IMG/VR virus record: IMGVR_UViG_2706794493_000022
Origin: a virus
Lineage: Duplodnaviria; Heunggongvirae; Uroviricota; Caudoviricetes
Strand: one strand, 5' to 3'
DNA: 7,505 nt
Shown: positions 1,547-6,805 of the stretch, piece after piece
Position numbering within the stretch: the first letter of the stretch is position 1
Layout: each line of letters opens with the position of its first letter
Notes under the pieces: model-generated
The model's input: only the letters and a program-made list of their open reading frames with translations
What the model was told of the DNA's origin: nothing
The model's database searches: none
Program-made: the position numbers and the translations under genes

Positions 1547-2638
1547 TCACCCCCTGAATCCCGGCGGAATTTCGGTATCCGGTTCAGAAATATGATTCAC
1601 ACAACGCTGGTTGTTCGTGCCGCTTACCGGGAGCAACCAGGGGTTTTCAAAATTCCGGTCCGGCCCAAAAAACGTCGTCGCTCGCTGAACAAATTCCGTT
1701 CCCGCTTTCCCGGTCGCCGCCAGGTATCTCGCGTAACGCCTCACACCATCCAGCATGGTCTCTGGTGGCACCCCCTCGCGCAATCTGGCCTTCCAGGCAC
1801 TGAAAGCGGATTTCTTCGGGTTTGCCCCAGCACGCAACGGGTATTCCCGCCAGACCTGTTCGAACACATCCGGATAATCCACTCGTCCCACAGACTGCCC
1901 GGTGCTTTCCGGGACTACCCGATCGGCTTCCCGCTGAATGGCGGAATCGGCTTCAGGCTGCTGCAGTTGGTGTGATTGCTCCGACCCTGCGGTCATCACC
2001 TGCTGCACAGCGCCCGAATCGGCTTCCGGTGTCGTGCCTGCTGGCTGACCAGGATTGACGGTCTGAACATCCCCTGCCTGGTTCGTGGTGTTTTTTTTGC
2101 CATGAACCATAGTGTTTTTGTCCTGTTCCTGTTCTTTCTCCTGCTCCTGTTCCTGTTCTTGGCTTCGAAGCCCCTTAAAAGCCCCTTCGAAGCCCCTTAC
2201 CGAATTTCGGCTATTATTCCGCCTCACATCCAGATGGAAATCCGTTTTATATCTGTCGTAAAACACTGACAGAAAAGCGTTTTCAGGTAATGATGCATAC
2301 TCATTCCTGACACCTGCACAACGGTTATCGCCAGGCTTCAACGTTTCCCCAACCTGCCAGGCTGCCATTTCATGGACCCAGACCATCTCTGCATCATGGT
2401 CATAGCTACAAAAACCAGCTTCAACAGCCCTTTTAAGCCCCTTTGAAGCCCCTTCCAGACCAAGCCCGGTTTCATGAGCAAGGTATAAAACTGGCAGGTA
2501 ATACAAACCCAGCATATTTGCGTGAGGGGATGTCATCAGGTAAAAAGCAACAACTTGCGCTTCTGCACCCGCCTTTCTAAGTTCTCTCCCCGTTTCTCCC
2601 AGCCAGAATCGCGGAGAAACTTTTGCGTAATCACGCAT
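1547..2638 (-). CDS. Phage replication initiation protein (O-like replisome organiser) with Q/E-rich linker
   Basis: Long ORF immediately upstream of and coupled to the DnaC-like gene. Preferred start is ATG at 2638 (MRDYAKVSPRFWLG..., SD GAGGT 4 nt upstream) giving 363 aa; the ORF track's 2749 ATG has no SD. Contains a QEQEQEQEKEQEQ linker and internal direct DNA repeats. Family assignment is by gene context and architecture, not by a search. Confidence 0.75.
   Translation of the reverse strand: MRDYAKVSPRFWLGETGRELRKAGAEAQVVAFYLMTSPHANMLGLYYLPVLYLAHETGLGLEGASKGLKRAVEAGFCSYDHDAEMVWVHEMAAWQVGETLKPGDNRCAGVRNEYASLPENAFLSVFYDRYKTDFHLDVRRNNSRNSVRGFEGAFKGLRSQEQEQEQEKEQEQDKNTMVHGKKNTTNQAGDVQTVNPGQPAGTTPEADSGAVQQVMTAGSEQSHQLQQPEADSAIQREADRVVPESTGQSVGRVDYPDVFEQVWREYPLRAGANPKKSAFSAWKARLREGVPPETMLDGVRRYARYLAATGKAGTEFVQRATTFFGPDRNFENPWLLPVSGTNNQRCVNHISEPDTEIPPGFRG
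2121..2158. repeat. Imperfect hexanucleotide tandem repeat (TCCTGT-like units) encoding the Q/E-rich linker of the replication protein
   Basis: Seen directly: tcctgt tcctgt tctttc tcctgc tcctgt tcctgt; reverse complement encodes QEQEQEQEKEQEQ in frame. Confidence 0.8.
2167..2199. repeat. Three direct 11-bp repeats (consensus GAAGCCCCTT + 1), iteron-like, inside the replication gene
   Basis: gaagcccctta / aaagccccttc / gaagcccctta at 2167, 2178 and 2189, an exact 11-bp phase; flanked by the CTTCGAAG palindrome. Confidence 0.45.
2423..2455. repeat. Second cluster of three 11-bp direct repeats (AAGCCCCTT-like), iteron-like
   Basis: aacagcccttt / taagccccttt / gaagccccttc at 2423, 2434 and 2445, same 11-bp phase and core as the 2167-2199 cluster, about 256 bp away. 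Confidence 0.4.
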
Positions 2639-2672
2639 GGCTACCTCATCTGGTGCCGAACCTTCCTCCGGA

Positions 2673-2678
2673 TATAAT
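2673..2678 (+). promoter_or_regulatory. Candidate -10 hexamer (perfect TATAAT) of an antisense promoter between the replication gene and the upstream ORF
   Basis: TATAAT at 2673-2678, followed about 26 nt later by GAGGAGG (2704-2710) and ATG 2717. No good -35 seen. Confidence 0.35.
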
Positions 2679-2716
2679 CTGTGGTTCCCAATCGACAGAA
2701 CCAGAGGAGGTTCGAC

Positions 2717-3172
2717 ATGTATTTTTTGAAAAGCCTTTATCAGGCTCATGTATTAAATGTTGCAGCAACAAACCGCTGGTGTAACAGCCCCGAAATGCTC
2801 CCGGATTACAGAGCCTGGCTGCGCGCCGAAACATACCTTCGTCTCGACATATTGATTAGCGAACTTCAAAAAGAGACTGCATCCATTCATAACCTTCAGG
2901 GTATCGACGCTGTTCGCATTCTGGTATCGCGCCATAGTGCTCTCTCAATAATTGAAGTGCGTCATCTCTCTTTTTCTGAACTGATTTTCTTGCTTCAACC
3001 AGCTCTGGAATCAGCGAATATCCCGCCGGAAGTGATCCAATACCCACCTCATGTTGACGAGCAGTTACAAGATGTGCCATACAACCAGCGTGCTGGATTG
3101 ACTCCCTGCTCAGAGGCTGAATGGGATCACTCTCTGCTGAAGAAATACCAAGATTTGTATAATCCTCAATAA
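2717..3172 (+). CDS. Hypothetical 151-aa protein, antisense to the lytic operon (alternative to the minus-strand ORF 2856-3365)
   Basis: ORF with strong SD GAGGAGG 6 nt before ATG 2717 and a perfect TATAAT about 38 nt upstream. Overlaps the minus-strand ORF on the opposite strand, so both are unlikely to be real. Confidence 0.4.
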   Translation: MYFLKSLYQAHVLNVAATNRWCNSPEMLPDYRAWLRAETYLRLDILISELQKETASIHNLQGIDAVRILVSRHSALSIIEVRHLSFSELIFLLQPALESANIPPEVIQYPPHVDEQLQDVPYNQRAGLTPCSEAEWDHSLLKKYQDLYNPQ

Positions 3173-3365
3173 GCCCGGCACACGCTTCTGCATCAGCCAG
3201 CTTTATTCTGGTTTCCTTGCGCTGTTCTCTGGCTGACAAACGCCAGAGCAGCGCATTAGCTTTATGTATCAACCACTCTGCCAGCTCCACATCAGATAAA
3301 CCGCCACGCCAGATGTGCGGACTGTTTTCGTAAACGCTCAGTGTCAATTTTTTGTCATTACTCAT
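2856..3365 (-). CDS. Hypothetical 169-aa protein between the ydaT-like and replication genes (alternative to the plus-strand ORF 2717-3172)
   Basis: ATG at 3365 lies 13 nt after the ydaT-like stop, fitting the operon; SD is weak (GGGT). The ORF track's 3416 start is a GTG with no SD. Helical, acidic-looking sequence. Confidence 0.45.
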   Translation of the reverse strand: MSNDKKLTLSVYENSPHIWRGGLSDVELAEWLIHKANALLWRLSAREQRKETRIKLADAEACAGLIEDYTNLGISSAESDPIQPLSRESIQHAGCMAHLVTARQHEVGIGSLPAGYSLIPELVEARKSVQKKRDDALQLLREHYGAIPECEQRRYPEGYEWMQSLFEVR

Positions 3366-3378
3366 ATTTATTACCCAA

Positions 3379-3804
3379 TTAATGCACAGCCAGAGTGTTT
3401 CCTGCCGGGCCACCACGATTCATCTGATCGAACAGAACGATCGCTGATGCAACGAAATCATCAATATCTTTCACCAGCCGTTCCTTCGTCTCTACCAACT
3501 CCCGAAAATAAGCGGAACTGTGGCTGCGCATTCGGGCCACCAGCGGAGGCGGCATCGCTTTTTCGATCGCTGGTAACAACGCCTGAATTTTTTTAACCGC
3601 ATCAGGAGTGTCTTTCTCCACCCAGCGGAAAATTTTCTGAGTATTGCGAGCCATGGCTTCCGGATGGCTGTCGTCATACAGTTCCGGGAACGTCATTCCC
3701 AGCTCGAAATACGCTTTGGTAATTTTCGCAGCCGGTACTTTTTCGCCGTCCGGATGCGCCCAGGCATTCATCGCCATGCGGATGTGTTCATGCTTGATTT
3801 TCAT
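3379..3804 (-). CDS. ydaT: YdaT-like protein (CII-analogue regulator)
   Basis: 141-aa ORF starting MKIKHEHI and ending ...VH, immediately downstream of and overlapping the Cro-like gene by 17 nt; SD GGAG 7 nt upstream of ATG 3804. Symbol given from recalled similarity to Rac/CP-933P YdaT, not from a search. Confidence 0.75.
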   Translation of the reverse strand: MKIKHEHIRMAMNAWAHPDGEKVPAAKITKAYFELGMTFPELYDDSHPEAMARNTQKIFRWVEKDTPDAVKKIQALLPAIEKAMPPPLVARMRSHSSAYFRELVETKERLVKDIDDFVASAIVLFDQMNRGGPAGNTLAVH

Positions 3805-4060
3805 GAATCAACTCCGGCGCATTTGATGTGTTAACCTTACATCCAACAGGTAAACCGTCGGTTGGGTTAGGATAAATATCTGGGCGGATTTCATGCGGGG
3901 TAACTTCCCACTTCATTAGTTGGCATAACGGAATTACCTGCTTTGGGGGAACGCCAAAGCTAAACCATTGCCAAACAGTCTGTTGAGCGACCCCCATATA
4001 ACGACCTATTTCAGCCTGAGTGTATTTCTGCCTAATTTTTTCGCGAGTGCTATCTAGCAT
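3788..4060 (-). CDS. ydaS: Cro-like HTH DNA-binding protein (YdaS-like), first gene of the minus-strand early operon
   Basis: 90-aa ORF with helix-turn-helix segment QAEIGRYMGVAQQTVWQW; strong SD GAGGAGGG 5-6 nt upstream of ATG 4060; divergent from the repressor gene. Confidence 0.85.
   Translation of the reverse strand: MLDSTREKIRQKYTQAEIGRYMGVAQQTVWQWFSFGVPPKQVIPLCQLMKWEVTPHEIRPDIYPNPTDGLPVGCKVNTSNAPELIHENQA
3794..3811. promoter_or_regulatory. Perfect inverted repeat TTGATT-N6-AATCAA spanning the ydaT-like start codon
   Basis: Seen directly: ttgatt ttcatg aatcaa. A 6+6 palindrome of this kind is expected about once by chance in 7.5 kb, so weak on its own. Confidence 0.3.
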
Positions 4061-4093
4061 TTTGCCCTCCTCTAAAAACTATAAGCAAAGCCT

Positions 4094-4132
4094 ACAATAA
4101 AAAACTGTATGCAATCAACAGTTTTTTATTGT
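4094..4132. promoter_or_regulatory. Operator-like inverted repeat (15-bp arms, 9-bp spacer) in the divergent promoter region
   Basis: ACAATAAAAAACTGT atgcaatca ACAGTTTTTTATTGT, perfect arms, 34-72 nt upstream of the Cro-like start and 37-75 nt upstream of the repressor start. Confidence 0.65.
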
Positions 4133-4156
4133 GATGCTTTTAACAGTATTTACCTG

Positions 4157-4162
4157 TAAAAT
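4157..4162 (+). promoter_or_regulatory. Candidate -10 (TAAAAT) for a leaderless repressor transcript
   Basis: TAAAAT ends 6 nt before ATG 4169, which has no SD; resembles the leaderless cI message from lambda PRM. No good -35. Confidence 0.3.
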
Positions 4163-4168
4163 TGAATA

Positions 4169-4570
4169 ATGATGAGCGCCCTAGAAGTATCTATGTACAG
4201 AATCAGCAAGCTTCTTCAGGAAACTGGATGGAGCCAGGCTGAGCTTGCCCGTAGAATTGGTGTGACACAACAAACTGTTCAACAATGGGTCAGCGGTAAG
4301 GCTACACCTAAAGCCTCAAGTTTGGATAAACTGGTTGAGGTTTCAGGGCATCCATTGCATTGGTTTTTATTGCCTCCTGAAGAGTGTGAGCAAATTTTCA
4401 CCCCTGACACGATGAAAATTGGTCCTCGCCAACGCGAACTGCTCCAAGCTTTTAGTGCGTTTCCTGAGGAAGACCAAGAAAAAATGCTTCAAGAAATCAA
4501 AGACAAGAAAAAATCAATGGAAGAAACCATTGCTAGGTGGCTGGCGGCACAAAAAAGCCGCCGGGCGTGA
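4169..4570 (+). CDS. paaR: Prophage repressor / TA regulator, XRE-family HTH (DicA/PaaR-like)
   Basis: 133-aa ORF with N-terminal HTH (SQAELARRIGVTQQTVQQW) and C-terminal ELLQAFSAFPEEDQ segment resembling DicA; divergent from the Cro-like gene; directly upstream of the antitoxin/toxin pair. True start may be the internal ATG at 4193; no SD at either. Confidence 0.75.
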   Translation: MMSALEVSMYRISKLLQETGWSQAELARRIGVTQQTVQQWVSGKATPKASSLDKLVEVSGHPLHWFLLPPEECEQIFTPDTMKIGPRQRELLQAFSAFPEEDQEKMLQEIKDKKKSMEETIARWLAAQKSRRA

Positions 4571-4597
4571 CCACAGTACAAGAAGAGGAGTTATGCC

Positions 4598-4789
4598 ATG
4601 GGTACAGCCCTTTCTCCGATAGTTTCAGAATTCGAAACTACCGAACAAGAAAACAGTTACAACGAATGGTTGCGCACTAAAGTAACGTCAAGCCTTGCAG
4701 ACACTCGCCCCGCAATTCCACATGACGAGGTAATGGCTGAAATGGAAAATCTTATTGCTCAAATTGCTGTAACTAACAAGAGCGAGTAA
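4598..4789 (+). CDS. paaA: Small antitoxin of a three-gene ParE-type TA module (PaaA-like, 63 aa)
   Basis: 63-aa acidic ORF; SD GAGGAG 7 nt upstream of ATG 4598; stop overlaps the ParE start (TAATG). The 63-aa size matches PaaA2 of E. coli O157:H7 as recalled. Confidence 0.7.
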   Translation: MGTALSPIVSEFETTEQENSYNEWLRTKVTSSLADTRPAIPHDEVMAEMENLIAQIAVTNKSE

Positions 4790-5076
4790 TGTTACCCATT
4801 TTATGGCTACCGTCTGCTCGCGATGATTTGCGCCAGATCATAACTTACATCGCCAAGGAGAACCCACCGGCAGCACGTAGACTAAAAATACGCATTGAAA
4901 CATCGGTATTACCTCTATCTGAGCATCCGTACTTATATCCACCAAGCGAACGGGTTTCTGGATTGAGAGAGATCGTGACCCACCCTAACTACATAATCCT
5001 GTACAGAGTAGCTGCTTCAAGCATTGAGATTGTAAGCGTGACACATTCTCGGCGACAATTTCCCTTCTCTATCTGA
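4789..5076 (+). CDS. parE: ParE/RelE-superfamily toxin (ParE-like, 95 aa)
   Basis: Typical ParE pattern (W...A..DL..I..YIA..NP.AA ... GLREI ... YIILYRV ... IEIVSVTHSRR); translationally coupled to the antitoxin by a 1-nt overlap. Confidence 0.85.
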   Translation: MLPILWLPSARDDLRQIITYIAKENPPAARRLKIRIETSVLPLSEHPYLYPPSERVSGLREIVTHPNYIILYRVAASSIEIVSVTHSRRQFPFSI

Positions 5077-5094
5077 GTTGAACAATTTTCATAC

Positions 5095-5117
5095 TCCCTC
5101 TTTCGAGGGATTTTTTT
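5095..5117 (+). terminator. Intrinsic terminator after the ParE gene
   Basis: Hairpin tccctc-tttc-gaggga (6-bp stem, 4-nt loop) followed by T7 (5111-5117), 19 nt after the ParE stop. Confidence 0.6.
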
Positions 5118-5127
5118 GCCCAAAACA

Positions 5128-5167
5128 ACAATTAAAAACTGTTGACACAAAAACAGTTTTTAATTGT
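5128..5167. promoter_or_regulatory. Second operator-like inverted repeat (16-bp arms, 8-bp spacer), near-identical half-site to 4094-4132
   Basis: ACAATTAAAAACTGTT gacacaaa AACAGTTTTTAATTGT; half-site matches the first operator at 14 of 15 positions; overlaps the candidate promoter. Confidence 0.65.
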
Positions 5168-5172
5168 AGATT
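5142..5172 (+). promoter_or_regulatory. Candidate sigma70 promoter of the dicB-type operon (-35 TTGACA, -10 TAGATT, 19-bp spacer)
   Basis: Perfect TTGACA at 5142-5147 inside the operator; TAGATT at 5167-5172. The spacer is longer than optimal, so the -10 choice is uncertain. Confidence 0.4.
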
Positions 5173-5353
5173 ACATACACCAACCACCCACCCCGCCCCA
5201 CAGAACGCCGGGCAATACTTCGAGTTACCAAGCAGTGGTCAGGGGGTAAGTAGCCAGCCCGAGGCGTATGAACATGACGGCAGGGTTCAACTTTAATAAC
5301 TATGCAGCAGGTTTTTGTTCCGCTACCCGGCGTTAAGGGGAAATGAGGTCAAC

Positions 5354-5509
5354 ATGGATACTATCGATCTTGGCAACAACGAATCTCTGGTGTACGGCGT
5401 GTTTCCCAACCAGGACGGTACATTCACCGCGATGACGTATACCAAAAGCAAAACGTTTAAAACCGAAAATGGTGCCCGTCGCTGGCTGGAAAGAAACTCA
5501 GGTGAGTGA
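5354..5509 (+). CDS. ydfA: Small YdfA/YdaF-like protein (DUF1391-type, 51 aa)
   Basis: ATG at 5354 with SD GAGGT 4 nt upstream (the ORF track's 5315 start is TTG with no SD); 51-aa product MDTIDLGNNESLVYG...; first gene after the promoter, as in the Qin dicB operon. Confidence 0.7.
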   Translation: MDTIDLGNNESLVYGVFPNQDGTFTAMTYTKSKTFKTENGARRWLERNSGE

Positions 5510-6226: not shown

Positions 6227-6412
6227 TTAATCTCGGGCGGCGTTTAACTCTTTATTCAGTAAATCAGACTGATACTGATTTGGCTTTGTAATGATACTGT
6301 CAAGTTTTGATATATGAAATTCAACATGTTCTGGACAGTTAAAAATGTAATAACCGCCCTTCTCTAAAAAGCCAGAAAGAGCGTTACAGGCAGGGCATGG
6401 TTTGTTTGGCAT
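6227..6412 (-). CDS. Small zinc-ribbon-like protein (61 aa; CPAC...CPEH), antisense to the dicB-type operon
   Basis: ATG at 6412 preceded by SD GGAGGA 4-5 nt upstream (a second in-frame ATG at 6424 lacks one; the ORF track's 6484 start is GTG). Product MPNKPCPACNALSGFLEKGGYYIFNCPEHVEF... has a C-x2-C ... C-x2-H arrangement. Confidence 0.5.
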   Translation of the reverse strand: MPNKPCPACNALSGFLEKGGYYIFNCPEHVEFHISKLDSIITKPNQYQSDLLNKELNAARD

Positions 6413-6747: not shown

Positions 6748-6805
6748 TTTCTGGTGACGTTTGGCGGTATCAGTTTTACTCCGTGACTGCTCTGCCGCCC
6801 TTTTT
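6748..6805 (+). ncRNA. dicF: DicF small RNA (ftsZ-targeting, Hfq-dependent) with intrinsic terminator
   Basis: tttctggtgacgtttggcggtatcagttttactccgtgactgctctgccgccc followed by TTTTT matches DicF of the Qin prophage as recalled; GGCGG...CCGCC stem plus U-tail; sits between the ydfB-like and dicB genes as in Qin. Confidence 0.85.

Follow-up and report, generated by a model that had tools for sequence, protein, structure and literature searches.

The question raised by this locus is whether a regulator followed by 2 small genes makes up a toxin-antitoxin (TA) system, and whether that regulator is at the same time the repressor of the prophage that carries it. The window, by which we mean the whole 7,505-nucleotide stretch analyzed here, very probably contains the paaR1-paaA1-parE1 operon, a three-component type II TA system that forms the repressor-side unit of an Sp4-type lambdoid immunity region of Escherichia coli O157:H7. 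The operon sits between the Cro-like/CII-like pair ydaS-ydaT and the early-left operon ydfA-dicF-dicB, and the parts first needed are these.

3379–3804, minus strand: ydaT, 141 aa, CII-like activator; Pfam YdaT_toxin, E = 1.2 × 10−9; PHROG 163 "CII-like transcriptional activator," E = 4 × 10−46
3788–4060, minus strand: ydaS, 90 aa, Cro-like HTH protein; Pfam YdaS_toxin, E = 8 × 10−10; PHROG 35 "transcriptional repressor," E = 9 × 10−29
3794–3811, no strand: YdaT operator TTGATT-N6-AATCAA at the ydaS/ydaT junction, in a PRE-like region; exact match to the site in PMC9986795
4169–4570, plus strand: paaR1, 133 aa, DicA/CI-like HTH repressor without an S24 peptidase domain
4598–4789, plus strand: paaA1, 63 aa, PaaA-family antitoxin without a DNA-binding domain
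4789–5076, plus strand: parE1, 95 aa, ParE-family toxin
5095–5117, plus strand: intrinsic terminator TCCCTC-TTTC-GAGGGA followed by 7 T residues; 6-bp stem with 4 G-C pairs

The initial annotation had read from this stretch an HTH regulator, a 63-aa antitoxin, a ParE toxin, a stop/start overlap, and a terminator, and every one of them is found at the positions it gave. Positions 3700 to 5300 match E. coli O157:H7 chromosomes at 100% identity. The Sakai counterpart lies inside prophage Sp4 as ECs1069-1067, Sp4 of Sakai corresponds to CP-933M, the EDL933 counterpart is at about 1.25 Mb, and the RefSeq annotation in O157:H7 has the same 3 CDSs. Over the whole 7.5 kb, the best-matching strains are 99.8% identical and Sakai and EDL933 98.1%, with all of the mismatches to O157:H7 strains falling outside the TA operon. 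The homologue has been placed in CP-933M (PMC8630535), and paaR1-paaA1-parE1 was published by Hallez et al. (2010, Mol Microbiol 76:719), a paper taken here as it is cited in PMC8630535, PMC4803016, and PMC3141249. As relayed by PMC4803016, it describes 2 O157:H7 paralogues, both functional, without cross-neutralization. The window locus is most probably the paaR1-paaA1-parE1 of that paper, and we infer the identity at the sequence level from the secondary citations and from a two-copy argument: both the window-type module and paa2 are present in O157:H7 genomes, and since the window module is the only paa-type module of O157:H7 other than paa2, it should be paa1. The early guess that this was an already known paaR-paaA-parE-type system of an O157:H7 prophage was thus right, with the refinement that it is the paralogue of paa2 residing in Sp4.

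The antitoxin gene has PaaA2 (PF21217) as its sole Pfam match, with E = 5.6 × 10−19, and matches NCBIfam NF050103 with E = 1.6 × 10−26; no ParD or ribbon-helix-helix model in Pfam or NCBIfam matches the 63-aa product. PaaA1 is 73% identical to the crystallized PaaA2 (Protein Data Bank [PDB] IDs: 3zbe and 5cw7) and about 70% to PaaA2 of the paa2 locus (variant L004). The toxin gene matches ParE_toxin (PF05016) over its full length with E = 2.9 × 10−17, and ParE1 is 67% identical to ParE2 (PDB ID: 5cw7_B) over 92 residues (E = 3 × 10−36). Canonical parDE systems, as in RK2, Caulobacter, and Vibrio, likewise combine a ParE-fold toxin with a small neutralizer encoded upstream, but the window antitoxin has no ribbon-helix-helix domain, and regulation falls to a distinct HTH protein, which serves as phage repressor too. 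All 3 open reading frames are intact, and paaA1 and parE1 are full length compared to the solved structures. The dN/dS of parE is 0.04 to 0.17, with dS saturated, and that of paaA is 0.04 to 0.28 in all pairs but the closest, window versus L005, which has 0.53 on few substitutions. The toxin values indicate strong purifying selection. In Hallez et al., as reported in PMC4803016, and in PMC8630535 (section 13), the toxins of the O157:H7 paralogues inhibit growth, each is neutralized specifically by its cognate antitoxin, and the modules stabilize replicons.

The 3 genes are packed as one unit. The gap from paaR1 to paaA1 is 27 nt and contains a GAGGAG Shine-Dalgarno sequence, the stop codon of paaA shares 1 base with the start codon of parE in TAATG (4787–4791), by which translation of parE1 is evidently coupled to that of paaA1, and the terminator follows parE. 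It folds at −10 kcal/mol with z = −2.5 against shuffles and is the sole plus-strand terminator-like site in 3700–5400. A hairpin with a T-run is at the matching place in 4 other variants, its sequence being different in L003, L002, and L004.

A well-studied relative is paaR2-paaA2-parE2 of CP-933P/Sp12 (PMC8630535; PDB IDs: 3zbe and 5cw7; PMC9986795). It has in common with the window the gene order and the divergent ydaS-ydaT, an identical YdaT operator (1 match in the window versus 0.04 expected), a TA pair between OR and OL/PL with a terminator after parE, a repressor without an S24 domain, and a repressor start compatible with a leaderless mRNA. That the window is paaR2-paaA2-parE2 itself is ruled out: ParE is 67% and PaaA about 70% identical, and the N-terminal repressor HTH, YdaS, and the operators are essentially unrelated. 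Identity to the CP-933P-type counterparts is 86% for YdaT and only 24% for YdaS, so YdaS varies with immunity type. The operators of the window are AAAAACTGT-based dyads, one long dyad with partial sites, whereas those of CP-933P are GTTTAGTAA repeats, four of them, each 18 bp. Because HTH, YdaS, and operators all differ, we expect the window prophage and CP-933P to be heteroimmune. Alignment to PaaR2, PaaA2, and ParE2, which the initial annotation had proposed as a check, bears out the relationship for toxin and antitoxin; the HTH of the regulator is unrelated to that of PaaR2. L002 and L003 were also considered as paa2 loci and are ruled out as such, being further variants; the true paa2 type is L004, from O55:H7, which has GTTTAGT operators and whose antitoxin and toxin show no difference from PaaA2 and ParE2 of the PDB over 53 and 92 aligned residues, respectively.

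What the TA pair does for the prophage is of interest because of where it sits. The paralogue has been described as occupying the position of lambda rexAB (PMC9986795), and the topology of lambda cI-rexA-rexB is indeed the same, in that a PRM-like promoter serves a repressor and 2 cargo genes jointly, pointing away from cro, and the unit ends ahead of OL/PL. There is no sequence relationship, however, and the cargo of the window is a ParE-type TA pair instead of the RexAB exclusion system. If the likeness to rexAB extended to function, the pair would mainly be a device for superinfection exclusion or abortive infection, set off by the entry of another phage, with addiction as a secondary effect. 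A place on the repressor's transcript upstream of OL/PL would suit such a device, and so would the absence of the pair from TA-less relatives, as is typical of defense morons: in phage Tritos and in Qin, the repressor gene is followed by a short intergenic stretch and then ydfA. The toxin allele also has been replaced independently of its neighbors, with a patch at 4814–5053 that is 70 to 80% identical to L005 between flanks of 93 to 100%, which would fit a diversifying conflict. Yet the low dN/dS values carry no sign of positive selection, PADLOC returns no defense-system model for PaaA or ParE and only generic HTH components for the regulator, and the paralogue stabilizes a plasmid by post-segregational killing, with activation of ParE2 detected in neither state of the switch (PMC8630535, section 13). 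We consider an exclusion device improbable, and prefer an addiction pair carried by the repressor operon.

In Pfam, PaaR1 matches HTH_3 (E = 2.3 × 10−12) and Phage_CI_repr (E = 7 × 10−5), and the same search gives no Peptidase_S24 match in the 133 aa. It would be CI-like in role, but it stands outside the family of autocleavable repressors of the lambda CI and LexA type, since the RecA-cleavable S24 domain of lambda CI is missing. Against the NCBIfam DicA model NF007257, residues 11 to 130 align with positions 9 to 131 of 135 at 51.5 bits, under the 101-bit cutoff, and identity to K-12 Qin DicA is 28% over the full length (E = 6 × 10−12); judged by these alignments, PaaR1 is a distant relative of DicA and not an equivalog. 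Searching the PDB with the regulator gave generic HTH matches only, such as 434 repressor, and no PaaR structure. The last 50 or so residues are common to the window type and the CP-933P type. A C-terminal motif, ELLxxFxAxPE, was examined as a possible TA-specific signature and is ruled out as one, since Qin DicA and Tritos CI, both from TA-less regions, have it too. At the repressor position, phage 813R8 has a 199-aa CI with a long C-terminal extension that is absent from the DicA-like repressors.

The start of paaR1 is unusual in having no Shine-Dalgarno sequence ahead of the ATG at 4169. A TAAAAT −10 at 4157–4162 would put the canonical +1 at A4169 of the ATG itself, a place where a consensus scan called no promoter, and the paaR1 mRNA is probably leaderless, as that of paaR2 is (PMC8630535). 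This and the other candidate control elements are as follows.

4061–4168, no strand: OR-like divergent control region, 108 bp between ydaS and paaR1
4074–4082: half-site with one mismatch, in the OR-like region
4094–4132: OR palindrome ACAATAAAAAACTGT-N9-ACAGTTTTTTATTGT, inverted repeat I4, with 15-nt arms 100% complementary
4144–4158: third dyad ACAGTATTTACCTGT, in the OR-like region
−35 at 4118–4113 and −10 at 4094–4089, minus strand: putative PR, hexamers picked by eye
−10 TAAAAT at 4157–4162, plus strand: putative PRM, picked by eye
5128–5167, no strand: OL-like palindrome ACAATTAAAAACTGT-N10-ACAGTTTTTAATTGT, inverted repeats I1 to I3, 90 to 94% match to the OR palindrome
TTGACA at 5142–5147 and TAGATT at 5167–5172: putative PL for ydfA-dicF-dicB, overlapping the OL-like palindrome, picked by eye

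The half-site AAAAACTGT occurs 11 times versus 3.6 expected, and clusters in the OR-like region and at 5134–5161. The large palindrome of the OR region recurs just past the terminator, bracketing the operon, and the 2 sites fit an OR/OL pair. OR and OL words co-vary in 5 immunity types, with 10 to 14 nt in common on the diagonal versus 6 to 9 nt off it. As to the promoters, the −10 of the putative PR, TAGGCT, is weak, the spacer of the putative PL is long at 19 nt (18 nt in L005), and a simple sigma-70 consensus scan called none of the 3 at the OR/OL positions; an analogous PL/OL has been demonstrated experimentally in CP-933P (PMC8630535, section 9). Transcription would be predicted to begin near 4082 on the minus strand for ydaS and at about 5179 for ydfA. 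By analogy, PaaR1 would bind the OR and OL palindromes, but because its HTH is unrelated to that of PaaR2, operator architecture, cooperativity, and octamerization are not simply transferable.

A different view of the regulator is that it serves the TA operon only, as the split-off DNA-binding domain of the antitoxin, and that its adjacency to ydaS is incidental. PaaR was first described as a TA operon regulator (Hallez et al. 2010, as cited in PMC4803016), PaaA has no DNA-binding domain of its own, and the S24 cleavage domain of lambda CI is absent. Such a regulator would have no role at the palindrome past the terminator, which lies over the TTGACA ahead of ydfA-dicB. Moreover, the co-variation of OR and OL extends to the HTH in all 5 immunity types, one of which is that of the TA-less Qin DicA. 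This cryptic K-12 prophage has a DicA-like repressor divergent from a small Cro-like gene in dicA-dicC, as in the window, an OR and OL with a word in common, as in the window, and the same downstream genes, ydfA-ydfB, DicF RNA, and dicB, with 97% DNA identity from window position 5317 on; no TA genes lie in the dicA–ydfA interval of its dicA-dicC/ydfABC-dicF-dicB immunity region, and its relBE-hokD is elsewhere in the prophage. PaaR1 aligns with DicA over its full length, the corresponding gene of TA-less phages encodes a DicA-like CI, and PaaR2 represses both PR and PL (PMC8630535). A role confined to the TA operon is accordingly very unlikely.

PaaR1 is then best taken as the prophage repressor with the TA pair in the rexAB position, as the initial annotation had it: the Sakai label for ECs_1069 is "phage repressor protein," ydaS is divergent, palindromes bracket the operon, and TA-less relatives keep the repressor in place. 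A regulator doubling as prophage repressor has been published for the CP-933P paralogue, and binding, cross-repression, and bistability were demonstrated there for PaaR2 and YdaS (PMC8630535). The layout supports the role suggested for the TA pair as cargo of the immunity region, a role that is not new: papers on the CP-933P paralogue describe it (mBio 2021; Acta Cryst D 2023), and for O157:H7 the literature already covers the TA system, the structure of the pair, the logic of its 3 components, and its integration in a lambda-like switch.

One could also take the module for a remnant of a cryptic prophage in decay, with genes recognizable but without function, a reading that has a negligible chance of being correct. 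In its favor, the lambdoid prophages of O157:H7 are mostly cryptic or defective, CP-933P among them (PMC8630535, introduction), and only 1 of 50,697 sequenced phage records has the cassette. Against it, the 3 reading frames are intact at full length, the parE dN/dS stays low although dS is saturated, identity is at least 99% in 438 records, and both paralogues were functional in cross-neutralization tests as related by PMC4803016.

Working by analogy with paaR2-paaA2-parE2, a mechanism can be proposed. PaaR1, a DicA-like protein without a LexA-type cleavage domain, would bind the OR and OL palindromes, silencing PR, with ydaS, ydaT, and the replication genes, and PL, with ydfA through dicB. 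It would also control its own PRM-like promoter, the transcript probably beginning at the ATG. Since paaA1 and parE1 would be on the same transcript as paaR1, the TA pair would be expressed whenever the prophage is repressed, and YdaT, when bound at TTGATT-N6-AATCAA, could switch on an alternative, PRE-like transcript that reads through the operon genes. PaaA1, presumably protease-labile, would wrap and neutralize ParE1, which would be a DNA-damaging, SOS-inducing toxin. Were the immunity region lost or replaced, the stable toxin would be left unopposed and the cell would die, so that the host would be addicted to this segment of the prophage.

The cassette is present in 833 of 5,426 complete E. 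coli genomes, and its surroundings are mosaic. A segment made up of the TA pair and about the last 50 repressor codons is found joined to at least 4 HTH/Cro/operator specificities (window type, L003, L002, and paa2). Downstream, a highly conserved leader at 5186–5345 was considered as a known or structured RNA associated with the TA pair. This is ruled out: Rfam has no match at E ≤ 1, the fold does not beat shuffled sequence (z = +0.74), and 11 phage records without TA genes have the leader too, so that it does not belong to the TA system. We tentatively entertain, as one possibility and not the leading one, that the pair with the repressor C terminus is recombination-mobile cargo whose toxin allele can be swapped alone. 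If this is true and ongoing, co-resident heteroimmune prophages with ParE/PaaA pairs that do not cross-protect might police the exchange of immunity regions, the policing being speculation, and the published idea that addiction protects the immunity region from recombination would be testable by comparative genomics.

The value of these findings is confirmatory, in that the less-studied Sp4 paralogue repeats the circuit layout and has heteroimmune operators of its own, and concrete candidate coordinates for the operators and promoters of PaaR1 are now given and can be tested. The comparison of variants presents the TA pair as optional cargo of an interchangeable immunity module, anchored by ydaT on one side and the early-left leader on the other. 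This bears on the published hypothesis that TA systems stabilize immunity regions among the many co-resident prophages of enterohemorrhagic E. coli.

The regulator, antitoxin and toxin genes of the window are packed in the manner of an operon and end at an intrinsic terminator, and the gene order, stop/start overlap and terminator described by the initial annotation are borne out by the open reading frames, the Pfam and NCBIfam assignments and the terminator fold:

4169-4570, plus strand, regulator gene paaR1, 133 aa, Pfam HTH_3 at E = 2.3e-12 with a weaker Phage_CI_repr match
4598-4789, plus strand, antitoxin gene paaA1, 63 aa, Pfam PaaA2 at E = 5.6e-19, NCBIfam concurring
4789-5076, plus strand, toxin gene parE1, 95 aa, Pfam ParE_toxin at E = 2.9e-17, NCBIfam concurring
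5095-5117, plus strand, intrinsic terminator, a hairpin and T7, fold -10 kcal/mol, z = -2.5 versus shuffles

The 27-nt gap between the regulator and the 63-aa ORF holds a GAGGAG Shine-Dalgarno sequence, and the paaA1 stop and parE1 start overlap as TAATG. The regulator aligns with DicA over its full length at 28% identity (E = 6e-12) and, at 51.5 bits, falls short of the cutoff of the DicA model; a Pfam search found no S24 cleavage domain in it.

Alignment with the solved structures gives 73% identity of the antitoxin to PaaA2 (PDB ID: 3zbe) and 67% identity of the toxin to ParE2 (PDB ID: 5cw7_B, E = 3e-36). The true paaR2-paaA2-parE2 (paa2) locus was recovered from O55:H7 as L004; over the 53 and 92 residues compared, its PaaA2 and ParE2 match the PDB chains without a difference, and the published GTTTAGT repeats are present in its intergenic region. 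Between the window and L004, ParE is 67% and PaaA 70% identical, YdaT is 86% identical but YdaS just 24%, and the regulators are alike in their C-terminal ~50 residues only.

Many E. coli O157:H7 chromosomes match positions 3700-5300 at 100% identity, and their RefSeq annotation has the same genes. The Sakai annotation puts the window within "prophage Sp4, lambda-like phage" and lists the regulator as ECs_1069 ("phage repressor protein"), the antitoxin as ECs_1068 and the toxin as ECs_1067 ("plasmid stabilization system protein"); the EDL933 copy is at ~1.25 Mb. Sp4 is paired with CP-933M by prophage order in a published table (PMC3368898), and a paa2 homologue has been placed in CP-933M (PMC8630535). 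Because O157:H7 genomes also carry both modules at separate sites (2.495 Mb for the window type and 3.842 Mb for paa2 in NZ_CP076232.1), we infer that the window operon is paaR1-paaA1-parE1. The system is thus already known, and the Sp4 match and the PaaA2/ParE2 similarity support the initial annotation, correct and careful in calling it a paaR-paaA-parE system as in O157:H7 prophages. Over its full 7,505 bases, the window has no 100% identical record in the E. coli genome collection; whole-window identity peaks at 99.8% (strain 2013C-3277 and many others) and is 98.1% for Sakai and EDL933, so there is more variation in the flanks than in the immunity/TA core, that is, the toxin-antitoxin (TA) operon with its control regions at 3700-5300.

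The module is matched in 833 of 5,426 complete E. coli genomes (531 with at least 80% coverage), with 438 records at least 99% identical, and the paa2 type is in 633 genomes. Among 50,697 phage records, the cassette is found only in Escherichia phage Evi, as the paa2 type (LR597642.1, 24332-25193); parE is unannotated in that record and was found by tblastn. All three window genes are intact, and dN/dS is 0.04-0.17 for parE, despite saturated dS, and 0.04-0.28 for paaA, except for 0.53 between the window and L005, the locus with the window's own immunity type, which is the closest pair with few substitutions. By these ratios, the two genes are under purifying selection, beside which an inert relic is a weaker reading than a working TA module.

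Divergent from the regulator are ydaS and ydaT, and the operators and promoters, named by analogy with lambda, lie on both sides of the operon:

3379-3804, minus strand, ydaT, a CII-like activator by PHROGs
3788-4060, minus strand, ydaS, a repressor by PHROGs
3794-3811, YdaT operator TTGATT-N6-AATCAA at the ydaS/ydaT junction, an exact copy of the published site (PMC9986795), 0.04 expected
4094-4132, OR-like palindrome ACAATAAAAAACTGT-N9-ACAGTTTTTTATTGT with perfect 15-nt arms, within the 108-bp intergenic region
4118-4113 (TTGATT), 18-nt spacer, 4094-4089 (TAGGCT), minus strand, putative PR, with a GGAGG Shine-Dalgarno before ydaS
4144-4158, third dyad ACAGTATTTACCTGT, overlapping the putative PRM -10
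4157-4162, putative PRM-like -10 TAAAAT, whose canonical +1 is the A of ATG 4169
5128-5167, OL-like palindrome, a near-copy of the OR-like one, ten bases beyond the terminator and spanning TTGACA
5142-5147 (TTGACA), 19-nt spacer (18 nt in L005), 5167-5172 (TAGATT), putative PL

The three promoters come from reading the sequence, and a consensus promoter scan called none of them. That the putative PRM +1 falls on the ATG at 4169, before which we read no Shine-Dalgarno, would be compatible with a leaderless paaR1 mRNA, as demonstrated for lambda cI and for paaR2 (PMC8630535); the third dyad could mediate autorepression. In CP-933P, YdaS and YdaT were shown to act as a Cro-like and a CII-like regulator rather than as a TA pair (PMC8630535). 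Pfam retains the names "Bacterial toxin YdaS" and "toxin ydaT", as does RefSeq with "toxin YdaT family protein", so these names could suggest a second TA system to an annotator.

The half-site AAAAACTGT, allowing at most 1 mismatch, occurs 11 times versus 3.6 expected, clustered at the OR-like and OL-like sites. We compared the intergenic region with the 120 nt 3' of the toxin gene (3' of dicA in the cryptic prophage Qin) in five immunity types: the window with L005, the further TA-bearing variants L003 and L002, L004, and Qin dicA. Each type has its own 10-14-nt word common to both sites, versus just 6-9 nt across types, which is the co-variation predicted for an operator pair bound by its cognate repressor. 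The pattern mirrors the PL/OL arrangement shown experimentally for CP-933P (PMC8630535), and beside it, a regulator serving the TA pair only is a weaker explanation than a prophage repressor.

Downstream of the operon, ydfA, ydfB, a 129-aa ORF, DicF RNA and dicB are arranged as in the dicA region of Qin, and the OL-like site would control this early-left operon, including:

6749-6800, plus strand, DicF antisense sRNA, Rfam RF00039 at 76.7 bits
6975-7163, plus strand, dicB, cell-division inhibitor

Interchangeable immunity modules occupy the stretch between two anchors, ydaT (~82-91% DNA identity) and a non-coding leader from ~5184 (~94-96% where compared), kept in all relatives examined but Qin, whose shared DNA starts only at 5317. 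In this slot, phage Tritos has a DicA-like CI running straight into OL and the leader without TA genes, phage 813R8 a long 199-aa CI, and Qin dicA, which argues that the TA pair is an optional insertion between the repressor stop codon and the terminator/OL. Lambda has rexAB at the position the TA pair takes here, as stated explicitly for the paralogue (PMC9986795). Thus the slot comparison and the bracketing palindromes sustain the initial annotation in placing the TA pair in the rexAB position behind the repressor, and the immunity-region role it singled out is already published. An exclusion role akin to rexAB is a weaker explanation of that position than addiction; PADLOC matched no defence model to PaaA or ParE.

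The non-coding leader at 5186-5345, from the OL-like palindrome to ydfA, opens with the C-rich run CCCACCCCGCCCCACAG and is ~95% identical across five heteroimmune variants, whereas identity in the adjoining parE is just 67-88%, its synonymous sites being saturated. The leader is also found in 11 TA-less phage records; it has no Rfam match, and its fold is not more stable than that of shuffled sequences. A rut or antitermination site and a recombination anchor are candidates for its conservation.

Elsewhere in the window, the ORF at 2717-3172 (plus strand), between ydaT and the replication gene, is a RefSeq "ECs1072 family phage-associated protein" with no PHROG match; it opposes the surrounding rightward operon, overlaps an ORF at 2856-3416 (minus strand) with no Pfam match, and may be an inserted moron. 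The replication-initiator-like ORF at 1547-2749 (minus strand) has a glutamate/glutamine low-complexity run, SQEQEQEQEKEQEQDKN, around 2100-2160, and its RefSeq start gives a shorter product than the longest ORF. Between the 129-aa ORF and DicF, a small ORF at 6227-6412 (minus strand) matches PHROG 10133 (E = 7e-51) with a CPAC...CPEH motif; L004 has a small gene under another name, "ECs_2282 family putative zinc-binding protein", at a comparable place 3' of parE2.

In the TA-bearing variants L002, L003 and L004, which have unrelated HTHs, DNA similarity begins within the repressor gene at ~4440-4505 and runs through the TA genes, and therefore the segment encoding the repressor's C-terminus moves together with the cargo. 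That part (~4440-4570) encodes the motif ELLQxFxAFPEEDQ...ARWLAAQK common to these variants, with a weaker form in DicA of Qin and CI of Tritos, both TA-less. The window and L005 are 95-100% identical over 3735-4813 but just 70-80% in the parE body (4814-5053 versus 3646-3885 of L005), with the right flank at 88-95%; dS is 0.08 for paaR and paaA versus 1.45 for parE. These differences indicate that a toxin allele was replaced by recombination with repressor and antitoxin kept. It is possible, if doubtful, that cargo and toxin alleles recombine among heteroimmune prophages and thereby police immunity-region exchange.

By analogy with the paralogue, PaaR1 would repress PR and PL and tune its own promoter, with the TA pair co-expressed with the repressor. 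PaaA1 would neutralise ParE1 and be protease-labile, ClpAP/ClpXP being the proteases of the paa2 antitoxin (PMC8630535). If the immunity region were lost or replaced, ParE1 would then be freed, leading to DNA damage, SOS induction and cell death, and such killing after segment loss would addict the host to the immunity segment (PMC8630535).
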